Shown: one piece after another, positions 681 to 5,068 of the stretch
Numbering within the stretch: position 1 is the first letter of the stretch
Layout of the letters: each line of letters starts with the position of its first letter
Assembly: GCF_051201565.1 (NCBI RefSeq)
Contig: NZ_CP179200.1
Span: forward strand, 480,001-512,000
Length of the DNA: 32,000 nucleotides
Direction: 5' to 3'
From: Pseudothioglobus sp. nBUS_23
Lineage (GTDB): Bacteria; Pseudomonadota; Gammaproteobacteria; PS1; Pseudothioglobaceae
The notes under the pieces: model-generated
What the model was told of the DNA's origin: nothing
The model's database searches: none
What the model saw: only the letters and a program-made list of their open reading frames with translations
Made by a program: the position numbers and the translations under genes

Positions 681-1694
681 ATGAATATTAAATTCACGAC
701 TAAAGTATTTGGTGTGGTAGCTGCAGCTTTATTGCTCAGCACTTCAGCGAATGCTGCAAAATGTGGAAAAGTTACAATTGCAGATATGAACTGGGCTTCA
801 GCTTCATTGATGGCAAATGTTGACAAAGCTATGTTAGAGGCGATGGGCTGTGAAGTTGAGCTAGTTGCTGGTTCAACAATGCCTACATTCACTTCAATGA
901 ATGAAACTGGTCAACCTGATGTTGCACCAGAGATTTGGGCAAATGCAATGGCAGATCTAGTTGACAGTGCTGTTGGCGCTGGACGTTTACACATTGGTAA
1001 TATTGCACCAATGAGTGGACTTGGAGAAGGTTGGTGGGTTCTTCCTCACACACTTGATGCTCACCCAGAGCTGACTACTGCGCAAGCAATTCTAGCGCGT
1101 CCTGACTTATTCCCAGACAAAGAAGACCCTTCAAGAGGTGCCTTCCATGGCTGCCCTGCTGGTTGGGGTTGCCAATTGTCAAATCAAAGCCTTTACAAAG
1201 CGTTCGATATGGAAGCTTTGGGTTGGAACCTGATTGATCCAGGTTCTGCTGCAGGACTTGACGGTTCAATTGCAAAGGCATCTGAGCAAGGTGAAAACTG
1301 GTTTGGTTACTACTGGAACCCAACTTCACTAGTTGGAAAGTATGGTTTGACAGCTGTTGATTTTGGTGTCCCATATGCTGGTGATGACAATTGGGTTGGA
1401 TGTATCGCACTAGGAGCTGATAACTGTTCAGATCCTGAGCCATCAGCATGGATTAACTCACGTGTTAACACTCTACTTAGTGATAATATGTTCTATAACG
1501 GACCTAAAGGAGCTATGGATTACTTTAAAGCTCGCACATGGCCTGGTAGTGTCATGAACGAAATGCTAGTTTGGATGGAAGATACAGGTGGAACTGGAGC
1601 GGACGCTTCTGTTGAGTTCTTATCTTCTCATGGAGATGTTTGGAAAGCTTGGGTAAGCGCCGATGTTGCTGCCTCAGTAGAAGCTTCTCTATAA
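681..1694 (+). CDS. proX: ABC transporter substrate-binding protein, glycine betaine/quaternary-amine (ProX/OpuAC) family, secreted
   Basis: AGGAG sits 9 nt upstream. N-terminal signal peptide MNIKFTTKVFGVVAAALLLSTSANA. Features I associate with ProX-type binding proteins are present: the ADMNWASA start, GCPAGWGCQ and aromatic-rich WFGYYWNP. It lies directly upstream of the matching permease and ATPase genes. The substrate (betaine, choline, TMAO, DMSP and so on) cannot be resolved by eye. Confidence 0.85.
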   Translation: MNIKFTTKVFGVVAAALLLSTSANAAKCGKVTIADMNWASASLMANVDKAMLEAMGCEVELVAGSTMPTFTSMNETGQPDVAPEIWANAMADLVDSAVGAGRLHIGNIAPMSGLGEGWWVLPHTLDAHPELTTAQAILARPDLFPDKEDPSRGAFHGCPAGWGCQLSNQSLYKAFDMEALGWNLIDPGSAAGLDGSIAKASEQGENWFGYYWNPTSLVGKYGLTAVDFGVPYAGDDNWVGCIALGADNCSDPEPSAWINSRVNTLLSDNMFYNGPKGAMDYFKARTWPGSVMNEMLVWMEDTGGTGADASVEFLSSHGDVWKAWVSADVAASVEASL

Positions 1695-1728: not shown

Positions 1729-1765
1729 ATTGCCCGTAGTTAAGTCGAATGCGGGCAATTTTTTA
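1729..1765 (+). terminator. Intra-operon Rho-independent terminator/attenuator after the binding-protein gene
   Basis: ATTGCCCG (1729-1736) pairs with CGGGCAAT (1752-1759), followed by a T-run through 1764 and preceded by an A7 run. Confidence 0.6.
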
Positions 1766-1856
1766 TTATTAAATCAATTCAAAAGTTATTAGACTAATTG
1801 CTAATAATTTTTGAATTGAAACTGTTAGAATATGCAGAAAATTAAAGGAGCTCATT

Positions 1857-4028
1857 ATGGCAGCAGTTAGGCCTCTACCTCAACAAAGCATTATTGAATG
1901 TATACCCCCTGCTTCTGAAATTGCAGATCTAAGGATACTCAATAAGGATCTGAATTTTATACAGGCGATGACCAAGAGGGCGGATGATCTCAATGCTCAA
2001 GCACAAGCTGCAACTGATTATTCTGAGTTAGTAAAGATATCGGATAGTTTTTCTAAGCTTGCTGAAAGGGCTGAAGTAAAAACAAAAACCTTAAAAGAGC
2101 TAACTAATGATTCAAACCCACTAACTGAAGTGAATAGCTCGGCAGAGCTTCTTGAAAAGGTTCAAGTCTTATCTCAAACGCTTGAGTCAAAAACACAAGA
2201 GCTTTCTGGTTTATATAACTCTAATGAAAGTTCATTGATTGATAGTTATGAAAGTTCCATTGCAGAATTAAATAATCAGGTTGATTTGACATCGTCCCCA
2301 GATGGAGTAGTTGCTCTATTTCCTCAAATAGAATCTCTGTTTCAAGAGATAGAAGAAAATACTCGATATGTAAGTAATAGTTCTGAAGCTTCTACTTTAA
2401 CTGAAAATGTTCAGAAACTTTCAAGTAATTATGCAGATAAGGCGGAGCAGTATAGCGACGCATTTATGAATGAAATGGGTTCTCAGATTGCTTTGCTTAA
2501 TGACGGCATCAATTCTTTGAGAGCAAATATTGACTATCTTAACTCAAACTCCTCAGTTCAGTCACACCTTGAGAGGCTCTCTGAGATTAGAGAGCAAGTG
2601 AATGCATCTGCCTCAATCTACAAGAATTATCCGGGTGCTCGTGATATGGTTTACAACCTTGATACTGTTAGTATCTCTACGCATGCAAGAGTTGAACAAA
2701 TGGCTAATAGTTACGAGATTGTCTCTGAAGAATTAATGCCTTTGGTTGATAACCCTGAGGCTCTCGTAAGAGCAGTCAAAGAAGCTGCGATAAGAACCGA
2801 TGTTTCAACCATTGAAAATGTTCTTATTCCTCTTACTAATAAAGCCAATGAGCTCAGTGCAAAAGTGATTGAACTTGCTGGACGCTATGATGCAGGAAAC
2901 TACGGAGATATTAAGGTCAGGGCCGTCTCAAATTTTGATAAAACAGTAGAGCGACTTGACAGACAATACATTGCAATAAGATCTACCGACCCTGAGGCTT
3001 TGGCAGCTAATATATCGGGCTTATCAAGCAATATTGAAAGTAATATGAGTGCAATCAGATCTGTTGATCCTTCCTCTCAAACTGAATATTTTGCATCATT
3101 AAATTCAAGAGTTGTTGACTCTGTAAATACCTCCGATTTCAGCATATTTGTGAATAACGTCATTTCCATACCAGGCGATGTGATGATGAGCTCCAGAAAC
3201 TGCGTTGATGCTGCGTTTAAAGACTTCACAAGAGAGTTTGGAAACAATATCGAGTCATTCTTTGACCCCCTCTTAACTTTTTTGATTGTCATTGAAAAGC
3301 TACTTCTGTCAACTCCTTGGCCTATCTTTTTGGCTGTGGCTGGCGCTCTTGCATGGCTAGGTTCCAGAAGCATTAAAGTCTCAATTGGTGTTATGGCAGC
3401 ATTCTTTGTGATTGGTTTCCTAGATATGTGGGAGCCAATGGTCTCTACCGTAACGATGATTTCAGCGGCAACATTGCTCTGCCTAGCGCTAGGTATACCG
3501 CTCGGAATTTGGATGTCTCGATCCGATCGAGCGCAATCCTGGATTACGCCTGTTTTAGACATTATGCAGACCATCCCATCTTTCGTATATTTGATTCCGG
3601 TAGTTATGATGCTTGGAATTGGAAAGGTTCCAGGGCTTATTGCAGTATGTATCTACGCAATGCCGCCAATTGTAAGGCTAACGAATTTAGGTATTCGTTT
3701 AGTTGATAAAGAGGCCATGGAGGCGGCTGATGCATTTGGAGCGACTTATAGGCAGAGACTATTTATGGTTCAAATGCCACTAGCACTTCCTAATATTTTT
3801 GCTGGTATCAACCAAACCATTATGATGGCCTTAGCCATGGTTGTAATTGCGTCAATGATTGGCGTGGCAGGCTTAGGTTTGCCGGTATTACAAGCTGTTC
3901 AAAACCAATTCCTATCAATGGGAATGCTTAATGGCTTAGCAATTGTTGCTCTTGCTGTCATTTTTGATAGAGTTTCACAGGCATTTGGTACCAGAATACA
4001 GAAACACCGTTCAGGAGACGTACTATGA
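1857..4028 (+). CDS. proW: ABC betaine/proline-type permease (ProW/OpuAB core, C-terminal ~285 aa) fused to a ~435-aa N-terminal extension of unknown function
   Basis: Uninterrupted 723-codon ORF with a strong RBS: AGGAG at 1846-1850, 6 nt before the ATG at 1857. The C-terminal part has the ProW core: IPGD...FFDPLL lead-in, about 7 hydrophobic segments, IMQTIPSFVYLIP, and the EAA-type coupling loop EAADAFGATYRQRLFMVQMPLALP. Residues 1-435 are S/N/E/L-rich, look helical and have no hydrophobic segment. Confidence 0.85.
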   Translation: MAAVRPLPQQSIIECIPPASEIADLRILNKDLNFIQAMTKRADDLNAQAQAATDYSELVKISDSFSKLAERAEVKTKTLKELTNDSNPLTEVNSSAELLEKVQVLSQTLESKTQELSGLYNSNESSLIDSYESSIAELNNQVDLTSSPDGVVALFPQIESLFQEIEENTRYVSNSSEASTLTENVQKLSSNYADKAEQYSDAFMNEMGSQIALLNDGINSLRANIDYLNSNSSVQSHLERLSEIREQVNASASIYKNYPGARDMVYNLDTVSISTHARVEQMANSYEIVSEELMPLVDNPEALVRAVKEAAIRTDVSTIENVLIPLTNKANELSAKVIELAGRYDAGNYGDIKVRAVSNFDKTVERLDRQYIAIRSTDPEALAANISGLSSNIESNMSAIRSVDPSSQTEYFASLNSRVVDSVNTSDFSIFVNNVISIPGDVMMSSRNCVDAAFKDFTREFGNNIESFFDPLLTFLIVIEKLLLSTPWPIFLAVAGALAWLGSRSIKVSIGVMAAFFVIGFLDMWEPMVSTVTMISAATLLCLALGIPLGIWMSRSDRAQSWITPVLDIMQTIPSFVYLIPVVMMLGIGKVPGLIAVCIYAMPPIVRLTNLGIRLVDKEAMEAADAFGATYRQRLFMVQMPLALPNIFAGINQTIMMALAMVVIASMIGVAGLGLPVLQAVQNQFLSMGMLNGLAIVALAVIFDRVSQAFGTRIQKHRSGDVL

Positions 4029-5068
4029 CTCAGGACATTAAAGTTAAAATTTCTAACCTGACTAAAATTTTTGGTCCCAAGGCCGAGTCTGTCCTAAAGC
4101 ACGTGGATAATGGAATGGGTAAAGATGATCTCCTCAAGGAGCACAAGCATGTTCTTGGCTTAAGTAATATTAATCTTGAGTTAGCCAACAAGAACATTGA
4201 AGTGATCATGGGGCTTTCTGGATCTGGAAAGTCAACACTGATTCGTCATATTAATAGACTCATAGAACCAACTGCTGGATCAATAATGATTGGTGGAGAG
4301 GATGTTATTCAGATGCCTATGGAAAAGTTAAGGCAGTTTAGACAACAGAAAACTGCAATGGTATTTCAAAGCTTTGCATTACTCCCTCACAAAACGATTA
4401 TGGAGAATGTTTGTCTTGGTGTTCATTTGCAAGGGATAAAGGCAGATGAGGCTACTAGCAGAGCAAAGAGGTGGATTGATCGAGTTGGATTAACTGGTTA
4501 TGAAGATCGTTACCCCTCGCAATTATCAGGTGGTATGCAGCAGCGTGTTGGTCTTGCTAGAGCGCTGACCTGTGATACAGAGATTCTGATGATGGATGAG
4601 GCGTTTAGTGCTCTGGATCCATTAATTCGAAGTGATATGCAAGATTTGCTTTTAGAGCTTCAAGAGGAGCTTCACAAGACGATTATTTTCATTACTCATG
4701 ATCTTGATGAGGCCCTTAAGATTGGAGACAGAATTGCGATTCTTAATGGTGGTGAGCTCGTTCAGCATGGTACGTCTCAGGAGATTCTAATGACGCCTGC
4801 TGATGACTACGTTAGAGACTTTGTTAAAAAGGTGAATCGCTCACATGTTCTTCATGCAAATTCAGTGATGACTGATCAGAAGCCAGCAAAAGGTTCTACC
4901 AATATTAAAGTTAATGAAATGGATTCAGTCGATTCAGTGTTGTGTGAGATGTTAAGGCAGAATGCAGACTGCTGCATTGTGCAGGATTCCAACGGATCAG
5001 ATATCGGCTACCTAAACAAGAAAGATATAGCTGAGGTTGTTCAGCCACTAGAGGCTGTTGACAATTAA
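4025..5068 (+). CDS. proV: ABC betaine/proline-type ATPase (ProV/OpuAA) with a C-terminal CBS-like regulatory region
   Basis: ATGA start/stop overlap with the permease gene. Walker [11 protein letters not shown]-loop [11 protein letters not shown], signature [15 protein letters not shown], Walker [14 protein letters not shown]-loop ITHDL. Confidence 0.9.

Follow-up and report, generated by a model that had tools for sequence, protein, structure and literature searches.

The 723-codon permease gene in the window (the whole 32,000-nucleotide stretch that was analysed, from Pseudothioglobus sp. nBUS_23) fuses a 435-residue helical domain to the N-terminus of a ProW/DmpW-type permease. The extension is a genuine protein domain under purifying selection, was gained in the Ca. 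Pseudothioglobus/Thioglobus lineage, and is translated from the upstream ATG. The features of the gene and of its neighbours are compiled in Table 1.

Table 1. Features of the permease gene and its surroundings (positions of the window)
Feature	Positions	Strand	Evidence or detail
dmpX-like gene for a periplasmic substrate-binding protein, 337 aa with signal peptide	681..1694	+	Pfam OpuAC, 1.3e-41
Hairpin and T-run in the gap between the dmpX-like and permease genes	1729..1765	+	TTGCCCG...CGGGCAA, then TTTTTTATT; sequence reading
Shine-Dalgarno sequence AGGAG	1846..1850	+	6 nt 5' of the ATG at 1857
Permease gene, dmpW-like with N-terminal extension, 723 codons/aa	1857..4028	+	single ORF
Conserved N-terminal peptide, residues 1–36, MAxRPIPQQSIxECxP...LRIxNKDLNFIQ	1857..1964	+	alignment, conservation profile
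Codon of invariant Cys15	1899..1901	+	Cys census
Three tandem helical-hairpin repeats: R1 43–135, R2 136–218, R3 219–301	1983..2759	+	hhalign and AlphaFold2
C-terminal helical subdomain of the extension, residues 302–425, seven shorter helices	2760..3131	+	AlphaFold2
Low-confidence linker, residues 426–437	3132..3167	+	AlphaFold2 pLDDT <50; extension-less orthologs start here
Two amphipathic scaffold helices, residues 438–486	3168..3314	+	homologous to OpuA scaffold/ProW lead-in; hhalign
Scaffold TM1 and TM2, residues 487–526, with short GSRSIK loop between them	3315..3434	+	hydropathy, OpuA homology
Five-TM translocator core with EAA coupling loop EAADAFGATYRQRLFMVQMPLALP (residues 622–645)	3435..4025	+	BPD_transp_1; OpuA 7AHC, 2.3e-60
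dmpV/proV-like ATPase gene, 347 aa	4025..5068	+	TIGR01186 and Pfam ABC_tran

Conservation and predicted fold of the extension

An identical start codon, a GGAG ribosome-binding site, and a stop-free frame are shared by 26 species-level Ca. Pseudothioglobus/Thioglobus genomes (31–99% identity), with dN/dS values of 0.07–0.08 in the extension versus 0.01 in the core. Just 14 in-frame codons lie between the upstream stop and the ATG, and GGAG is kept at the matching position in the permease genes of relatives. The intact architecture is present in a closed genome of 1.79 Mb and in further complete genomes, and it recurs on hundreds of metagenome contigs of independent origin. Only two broken copies were found, both on single metagenome contigs, one interrupted at residue 492 by a nonsense codon, the other by a deletion near residue 592. 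These two contigs could be taken to indicate that the long frame is an assembly or sequencing artefact, or a functionless, decaying leader translated by accident, but both breaks fall inside the TM core and none at the domain junction; the high AlphaFold2 confidence described below likewise speaks against such a reading, to which we assign next to no probability, and which is effectively refuted by the shared start, Shine-Dalgarno sequence, frame, and dN/dS. The first-pass annotation of this DNA had judged a continuous ~435-codon frame opening at an ATG behind AGGAG to be hardly attributable to chance, and the 26 genomes and their dN/dS values bear this out. The gene split at the domain boundary that it had envisaged among relatives was seen in none of them, and the survey of relatives that it had proposed found the extension in these 26 genomes and missing from the closest orthologs outside the lineage.

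Sequence and profile searches of residues 1–435 against Pfam, NCBIfam, and the PDB gave no significant match. When 1.84 billion protein representatives were searched exhaustively by profile, the extension was confined to the Ca. Pseudothioglobus/Thioglobus lineage, the 37 matches being same-family fragments and generic coiled coils, and Foldseek searches with two models reached best TM-scores of at most 0.17 (normalised by query length) and 0.27 (by target length). A common ProW accessory domain, raised earlier as a possible explanation of the extension, thus found no counterpart in any of these searches. As candidates for a known domain, coiled-coil, apolipoprotein, and designed-repeat proteins were rejected, the matches being just compositional. 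In particular, apolipoprotein A1/A4/E-like repeats (PF01442) gave no Pfam match at E ≤0.1 in the window's protein. ApoA-IV was hit in the PDB profile search with an E-value of 0.0065, and one close relative bears a precomputed PF01442 tag; judged by sequence, the apolipoprotein resemblance is compositional only.

The highest 19-residue Kyte-Doolittle mean within residues 1–435 is 0.76, and the region is therefore free of a TM segment or signal peptide, in agreement with the first-pass view that it holds no hydrophobic segment, signal peptide, or recognisable motif. Its composition is acidic (net charge, −28) and rich in Ser (13.3%) and Asn (8.5%), with 36 Lys and Arg residues in the extension and 40 in the ~486-residue tail formed by the extension and the scaffold helices. 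In the first 36 residues, MAAVRPLPQQSIIECIPPASEIADLRILNKDLNFIQ, a Sec, Tat, or lipoprotein signal was looked for, and the h-region, RR motif, and lipobox were all absent; Glu at position −1 before Cys15 breaks any lipobox. This N-terminal peptide is the most conserved stretch of the extension in the conservation profile, with Arg5, Pro8, Cys15, Ala19, Leu25, Arg26, Lys30, Leu32, Phe34, Ile35, and Gln36 invariant, and its residues 1–14 are predicted to be disordered (AlphaFold2 pLDDT <50).

AlphaFold2 predicted an all-α fold for the domain alone (pLDDT >90 over residues ~40–425; pTM, 0.71), as expected from the helical character first noticed by eye, whereas the placement of residues 1–27 and 426–473 was not confident. 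The three tandem hairpins are ~83–93 residues long and consist of the helix pairs 55–82/93–144, 148–167/178–227, and 231–250/261–296 (pLDDT >90). Their repetition was detected by hhalign self-comparison, in which residues 43–189 align with 136–272 (probability, 97%; E-value, 5.5e-11). The following C-terminal subdomain contains conserved blocks at residues 301–340 and 361–380.

Permease core and the surrounding transport locus

The last ~290 residues form a permease core of the ProW/OpuAB type. Pfam BPD_transp_1 (PF00528) covers residues 546–714 with 92.2 bits, above the gathering cut-off of 26.4, and NCBIfam ProW and ChoW models span residues 463–713, both below their equivalog cut-offs (NF008196 for ProW, 243.8 versus 439; TIGR03416 for ChoW, 256.1 versus 363). 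Judging from these scores, the permease is related to ProW and ChoW, yet is another protein. Both the earlier placement of the core in the last ~285 codons of the ORF and the count of about seven TM segments agree with the Pfam and NCBIfam matches and with hydropathy, respectively. The translocator core shows column identities of at least 90% across the family, and the EAA coupling loop between core helices three and four is present and nearly invariant.

Upstream of the core, Foldseek, hhalign, and hydropathy all delineated an OpuA-like scaffold of two amphipathic helices and two TMs. In the Foldseek superposition, 267 of 272 residues of OpuA (7AHC) were aligned, with the model being of low confidence in the scaffold region, and hhalign matched the region of residues 430–487 to the N-termini of orthologs at 99.4%. 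An insertion splitting an ancestral N-terminus had been considered, prompted by a likeness by eye of DLRxLxKxL to the ortholog N-terminus, and was ruled out, as the ortholog N-terminus aligns in hhalign over its full length, and collinearly, with residues 430–487 and has no second match. The scaffold-helix region carries Met443/Met444 (3183–3188) and Cys449 (3201–3203).

The permease gene is flanked by genes for an OpuAC-type binding protein and a ProV-type ATPase, and the start of the ATPase gene overlaps the permease stop (ATGA). The ATPase passes the cut-off of the NCBIfam TIGR01186 proV subfamily (342.6 versus 326.6) and gives a single, weak CBS match (E-value, 0.077, Pfam). The best PDB match of the binding protein is the RnDmpX/DMSP complex 7YLE (7.8e-53), and seven of the eight DMSP-pocket residues are identical, with Ala153 replaced by Gly (pocket list: Trp35, Thr64, Trp84, Glu113, Trp152, Ala153, Tyr200, and Trp202; PMC10030565). 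The X-W-V gene order matches that of orthologous Pseudomonadota loci, to which the binding protein is 42–56%, the permease core 58–67%, and the ATPase 54–64% identical. The permeases of those loci have 290–350 residues, and the closest permease orthologs (59–67% identical) are without the extension. The system is thus likely, on these sequence grounds, a DmpXWV-like importer of DMSP or a closely related onium compound; the ProW type first assigned to the core stands, whereas a generic ProU system gives way to this more specific assignment. According to PMC10030565, Ca. Thioglobus is among the DmpX carriers, and metagenomes and metatranscriptomes of polar oceans are reported to contain its DmpX in abundance. 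The host is a marine SUP05-group bacterium with a streamlined 1.8 Mb genome. In the intergenic region, the hairpin at 1729..1765 is absent from the list of the consensus scan, probably on account of its 14-nt loop, which is longer than the 3–8 nt allowed in that scan, and the string GGGCAATTTTTT recurs just 5' of the permease ribosome-binding site in other species.

Sidedness of the extension

We lean, by a modest preponderance of the evidence, towards a periplasmic location of the extension, because the N-termini of OpuA and ProW face outward and no TM separates the extension from the scaffold helices. The scaffold helices of OpuA rest on the outer leaflet, with labelling of Cys23/24 from the outside (PMC7673798), and the title of Whitley 1994, cited therein, gives the N-tail of ProW as periplasmic. 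The same side is favoured by a natural fusion: a gammaproteobacterial relative (locus L069 of genome G149) encodes a 646-aa permease in which a signal-peptide-bearing OpuAC domain is joined to the scaffold helices at the same spot, with no TM in between. The Cys census also favours the periplasm, because the only Cys residues within residues 1–486 are the invariant pair Cys15/Cys449, found exactly so in all family members; position 449 is Ser or Thr in extension-less orthologs. This co-occurrence counts as one event because of its single evolutionary origin. DsbA and DsbB are encoded in the genome, where even Cys counts occur in 73% of the exported-like proteins (versus 54%) and low Cys in 33% (versus 12%). 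Finally, the composition is exported-like, which favours the periplasm as well: among cytoplasmic-like proteins, 0.45% reach the score of the extension, a compositional outlier, as do 12% of the exported-like ones, in a classifier that is crude, uses heuristic labels, and has a cross-validated AUC of 0.82.

Against the periplasmic side, a signal peptide, Tat motif, and lipobox are absent and the tail holds 36 Lys and Arg, and TM1 would be made only after completion of the stable fold that AlphaFold2 predicts. No documented signal-less N-tail is known to be longer than that of ProW, with ~100 residues. Counting of positive charges fits an N-in model with eight TMs as well as an N-out model with seven, and the charge patterns of the extra N-terminal TMs in paralogues are ambiguous. 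Topology predictors wrongly gave N-in with eight TMs for OpuA, according to the authors of that work (PMC7673798).

A cytoplasmic extension, whether a regulatory or sensor module responding to ionic strength or crowding, for example, or a scaffold touching the DmpV ATPase, is the less probable alternative, though one of real weight. Any known type of export signal and any hydrophobic segment are lacking from residues 1–435, the helical fold is confidently predicted to be stable, and no precedent is known for signal-less N-tails beyond ~100 residues (cf. the title of Whitley 1994). Electrostatic sensing would be in keeping with the strongly acidic surface (net −28), and since the CBS match of the partner ATPase is weak and single, a regulatory role could sit elsewhere. 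This location needs scaffold helix 2 (residues 468–486) to span the membrane, or the scaffold to lie on the inner leaflet, unlike in OpuA and ProW. The helix has a Kyte-Doolittle mean of 1.56–1.71 in the window's protein, and Arg447, Lys455, and Arg459 before it would meet the positive-inside rule. However, the first-pass suggestion that this segment, PLLTFLIVIEKLLL, could act as a topology-switching eighth helix is unlikely: it is the second amphipathic scaffold helix, is unchanged in extension-less orthologs, and has in divergent family members two or three charged residues (Asp, Glu, or Arg, e.g. WLLTFLDSFEDALLWL), which makes it a poor TM candidate. Also contrary to a cytoplasmic location are the matching outward end of the two experimentally mapped relatives (OpuA and, as far as the title of Whitley 1994 tells, ProW), the identical junction in the natural binding protein–permease fusion, the two-invariant-Cys pattern, and the exported-like composition. 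The orthologous DmpV proteins of extension-less loci are of similar apparent size, those ORFs being limited by the locus ends, so that the extension does not obviously compensate for a truncated CBS region in the ATPase.

A third reading, compatible with either sidedness, is that translation begins at two sites and gives, besides the 723-aa protein, a permease of ordinary size from Met443/Met444, such that only some subunits carry the extension. The Met443-Met444 pair is nearly invariant, lies 13–17 residues past the start of extension-less orthologs, and is preceded ~9 nt 5' by a weak AGG in the window's sequence. Among 20 family members, however, no conserved Shine-Dalgarno-like motif was found there (the codons vary, e.g. 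CCT CGT GAT and TCT CAT GAT), whereas the true start has a conserved GGAG; and because the pair lies within a strongly conserved protein segment, its conservation is explained without a start function. We consider two products quite improbable. Translation only from these internal Met codons (3183/3186), foreseen initially as an objection to the extension, is likewise not borne out, with the codons conserved as residues, no conserved Shine-Dalgarno sequence, and the upstream part under purifying selection.

If the extension is periplasmic, the ~486-residue N-tail would cross the membrane without a signal peptide, and the bundle would stand on the periplasmic face, adjoining the site at which the binding protein docks; each W2V2 transporter would have two such bundles. 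A Cys15–Cys449 disulfide may tie the conserved N-terminal peptide back to scaffold helix 1, and this peptide could possibly represent a new targeting or stapling element in tail export. That a folded ~486-residue tail with 40 basic residues is exported signal-less by a downstream reverse signal-anchor, and forms a tower recruiting or gating the DMSP-binding protein, is a proposal that we rate a little short of an even chance. The specific role of the bundle as a docking or retention platform, or a guide, for DmpX is conceivable by analogy with binding domains that are covalently fused, or with MalF P2 (see below), and rather unlikely overall.

Comparison with related transporters

Among characterised systems, DmpXWV of Ruegeria pomeroyi and Roseovarius nubinhibens (Li et al. 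2023, PMC10030565) has the X-W-V order in common with the present locus, and RnDmpX (7YLE) resembles the binding protein here (8e-53; 7/8 pocket residues). It differs in that the sampled orthologous permeases have 290–350 residues, whereas the permease here carries 435 additional N-terminal residues. The closest solved core is that of OpuA from Lactococcus lactis (OpuABC/OpuAA; 7AHC/7AHD, Sikkema et al. 2020; 2.3e-60), with 43% identity over 267 columns in Foldseek and the outward-facing scaffold of two amphipathic helices and two TMs in common. The extra (binding) domain of OpuA is, in contrast, C-terminal after an added anchor helix, an N-terminal helical bundle is absent, and ionic strength and c-di-AMP are sensed through the ATPase and CBS domains.

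ProW (Whitley 1994, as cited in PMC7673798) has in common with the present permease the family, seven TMs, the scaffold lead-in, and the EAA loop. In both proteins, a soluble, acidic, signal-less N-terminal addition precedes the scaffold helices. The two tails are without sequence similarity, ProW profile positions 1–88 remaining unmatched, and the tail here is ~5 times longer, predicted to be folded, repetitive, and furnished with 36 basic residues. In the binding protein–permease fusion at L069, a soluble domain of ~330 residues directly precedes the scaffold helices, as here, and joins them without a TM, which marks this junction as a site of periplasmic attachment. In that fusion the domain can be recognised as an OpuAC binding protein with its own signal peptide, whereas the present extension is a helical bundle of orphan status without an export signal. 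A large periplasmic accessory domain that contacts the binding protein is known in another type I ABC importer permease, MalF P2 of the maltose importer, which is an internal loop between TM helices and is not known to be an all-helical bundle. MalF P2 offers a functional analogy to the proposed docking role and is unrelated in sequence.

The central point of the first-pass annotation, that either sidedness would be new for this transporter family, stands. If periplasmic, the extension would exceed the accepted length limit for translocation of signal-less N-tails in bacteria and would provide a natural substrate for studying how such tails cross the membrane; if cytoplasmic, a ProW-family permease would have inverted or re-threaded its scaffold, which is equally unexpected. 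The modified permease would belong to a DMSP uptake route of ecological relevance in an abundant bacterium whose streamlined genome nevertheless retains this additional 1.3 kb of coding sequence under selection. Since Pseudothioglobus strains are available in culture (PMC12421898), the question of the extension is open to experiment.

Coding frame and operon of the extended permease

The long permease frame recognized in the first-pass annotation was confirmed, with the permease domain at its C-terminal end: BPD_transp_1 of Pfam covers residues 546–714 (92.2 bits), and residues 463–713 align to the ChoW and ProW models of NCBIfam with scores under the equivalog cut-offs. The ATG is located 6 bases past an AGGAG, and an upstream in-frame stop comes after only 14 codons. 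Translation very probably starts at this ATG and not at the internal Met443/444, considered earlier as alternative starts: GGAG is conserved ahead of the former, and no Shine–Dalgarno motif conserved in the family comparison precedes the latter.

Genes of the transporter operon in the window
Feature	Position	Strand	Remark
OpuAC-family binding protein gene	681..1694	+	signal peptide; upstream of permease gene
Extended permease gene	1857..4028	+	single 723-codon ORF
ProV-subfamily ATPase gene	4025..5068	+	downstream of permease gene

The core (last ~290 residues) is typical of the ProW/OpuAB/DmpW group. Its nearest orthologs among 400 sampled Pseudomonadota genomes are 59–67% identical in the core and also show the X-W-V arrangement (binding protein, permease, ATPase), with binding proteins 42–56% identical and permease frames of merely 290–350 aa. 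Because the whole N-terminus of these extension-less orthologs is collinear with residues 430–487 (hhalign 99.4%), the extension (residues 1–435) was purely added in front of the N-terminus of a DmpW-type permease. The best solved relative of the binding protein is the Roseovarius nubinhibens DmpX/DMSP complex (7YLE; 7.8e-53), and seven of the eight DMSP-pocket residues named in PMC10030565 are identical in the HMMER alignment, the remaining one being replaced from Ala to Gly; DmpX of Ca. Thioglobus has been reported, with high abundance in polar oceans (PMC10030565). The most fitting label for the operon is DmpXWV-like, with DMSP as the putative substrate; one source annotates the extended permease merely as a glycine betaine/proline permease.

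The ATPase is only 347 aa long, with a single weak CBS match (residues 294–339; E 0.077), whereas two CBS domains in tandem are found in E. coli ProV and OpuAA; the DmpV orthologs appear similarly short, though their ORFs were truncated by locus ends. A hairpin followed by a T-run (1729–1765) is conserved between the binding-protein and permease genes, with GGGCAATTTTTT immediately ahead of the permease RBS in other species (relatives' loci L033–L036). This element is consistent with attenuated read-through, by which the binding protein would be produced in excess.

Conservation, fold and origin of the extension

The extension is a real protein domain under selection. The genome containing the window is closed (1.79 Mb). 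Of 24 genomes sampled from the genus, 19 have the stop-free architecture of 721–738 aa, as do 26 genome records at species level; the N-terminus of the permease is invariably MA[A/I/V]RPIPQQS... with GGAG ahead of the start. The extended permease also occurs on hundreds of independent metagenome contigs, and related records are labelled Ca. Pseudothioglobus, Ca. Thioglobus or SUP05. In the most divergent relatives, the identity of the extension decreases to 31–36% while that of the TM core is still ~84%; dN/dS is 0.07–0.08 for the extension and 0.01 for the core (Nei–Gojobori, unsaturated pairs). Not every member of the genus has the system: the near-complete genome G001 (99%) has no extended copy, giving paralogue-level matches only (best E 2.2e-54, to the core). 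As to a split into two genes, which the first-pass annotation had raised, neither of the two shorter cluster members is interrupted at the domain junction. Both are broken copies on metagenome contigs, with breaks inside the TM core: an in-frame stop at residue 492 (L075:83-2251), and the loss of ~9 codons together with a frameshift near residue 592 (L074:1914-4057). Either faulty assembly or gene decay could account for these alleles.

AlphaFold2 with family alignments modelled the extension as all-helical, with pLDDT mostly >90 over residues ~40–425 and low confidence at residues 1–14 and 426–437. The same helical model was obtained in full-length and domain-alone runs (mean pLDDT, 86.9; pTM, 0.71, for the domain alone); the TM part was badly modelled in the full-length run because the alignment there is shallow and nearly invariant. 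Profile self-comparison detected tandem repeats (residues 43–189 versus 136–272; probability, 97%; E 5.5e-11), which gives an architecture of three helical-hairpin units of ~83–93 residues each, followed by a subdomain with shorter helices; the extension probably grew by tandem duplication.

Consistent with the earlier impression of no recognizable motif, searches of Pfam, NCBIfam and PDB sequence families gave no meaningful match to the extension. Foldseek against the PDB retrieved just helical repeat proteins of de novo design and various proteins with long helices (TM-score, ≤0.17 with query-length and ≤0.27 with target-length normalization), and a profile search across 1.84 billion protein representatives gave 37 matches, composed of one full-length cluster, same-family fragments and eight generic coiled-coil proteins. 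Neither search thus reveals a known accessory domain, and the extension is an orphan domain restricted to the Pseudothioglobus/Thioglobus lineage.

Sidedness of the extension

The closest structure to the core is Lactococcus lactis OpuA (2.3e-60 by sequence; 267 of 272 residues aligned by Foldseek). The N-terminal scaffold of OpuA consists of two amphipathic helices on the outer leaflet and two TM helices; its Cys23/24 are labelled from outside in intact cells, and topology predictors wrongly placed the scaffold helices inside (PMC7673798). According to a title cited there, the 100-residue N-tail of ProW is periplasmic and its translocation is Sec-independent. As noted in the first-pass annotation, residues 1–435 contain no hydrophobic segment (highest 19-residue Kyte–Doolittle mean, 0.76). 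The stretch from the extension to the scaffold helices (residues 438–486) has none either; if the family topology holds, the extension would be periplasmic. The candidate eighth helix, proposed earlier as a means of keeping it cytoplasmic, turned out to be scaffold helix 2, which orthologs lacking the extension share and which bears 2–3 charged residues in divergent family members. In a gammaproteobacterial relative (L069; G149:C131:1309-5106), a 646-aa fusion protein with a core 44% identical contains, in order, a lipoprotein-like signal peptide, an OpuAC binding domain, scaffold helices and a ProW-type core, the binding domain being joined to the scaffold without an intervening TM; this direct joining places the domain–scaffold junction of a Gram-negative relative in the periplasm.

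The Cys pair and the composition point to the same side. Residues 1–486 hold exactly two Cys, C15 and C449, both invariant in 21 of 21 aligned family members, none of which has a further Cys in this region; orthologs without the extension have Ser or Thr at position 449, and DsbA and DsbB homologues are present. In crude, heuristic sets from the window's genome, even Cys counts are found in 73% of exported-like versus 54% of cytoplasmic-like proteins, and low Cys content in 33% versus 12%. With a classifier trained on the same sets (cross-validated AUC, 0.82), the composition score of the extension is reached by 12% of exported-like and 0.45% of cytoplasmic-like proteins.

These indications have to be weighed against several points that speak against a periplasmic extension. 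The permease has no Sec, Tat or lipoprotein signal, in agreement with the earlier reading, and its N-tail, acidic overall (64 D+E versus 36 K+R) and Ser- and Asn-rich, would have to be translocated with those 36 basic residues. The extension is predicted to fold stably, and its synthesis would be complete before the first TM emerges. Positive-charge counting fits an 8-TM N-in model, and the co-occurrence of C15 and C449 reflects one evolutionary origin. Documented bacterial N-tails that lack a signal are not known to exceed the ProW tail in length. On balance, we regard the periplasm as the somewhat probable location and the cytoplasm as a distinctly less probable one, the rest being left to other or mixed cases.

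Possible role and related N-terminal additions

[quoted passage not shown] The chain at residue ~436 would hold each tower to the membrane surface, perhaps helped by a C15–C449 disulfide, which would fix the conserved, disordered N-terminal peptide onto scaffold helix 1. Because the towers would flank the DmpX docking site, the simplest role would be to recruit, retain or orient DmpX, which would parallel, without a covalent link, the binding-domain fusions in the ProW/OpuAB/DmpW family; we hold this speculation to be rather unlikely, and a static structural or a sensing role is possible.

A literature search found no description of the extension, which is without known relative. The closest precedents in concept all differ from it: the N-tail of ProW is ~5-fold shorter and has an unrelated sequence, binding-domain fusions at the N-terminus possess the signal peptide that the extension lacks, and MalF P2 is an internal loop rather than an N-terminal addition. 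In this lineage, the N-terminus of ProW-type permeases seems to be especially prone to additions. Outside the window, the same genome (G000) encodes three paralogous ProW-type permeases (C1:1482139-1482951, 958711-959421 and 677148-678809) with differing N-terminal add-ons: one is a 348-aa frame with a single extra hydrophobic helix ahead of the scaffold helices, one a 502-aa frame with about four hydrophobic segments and a coiled-coil stretch, and one an 804-aa frame with two permease cores in tandem.
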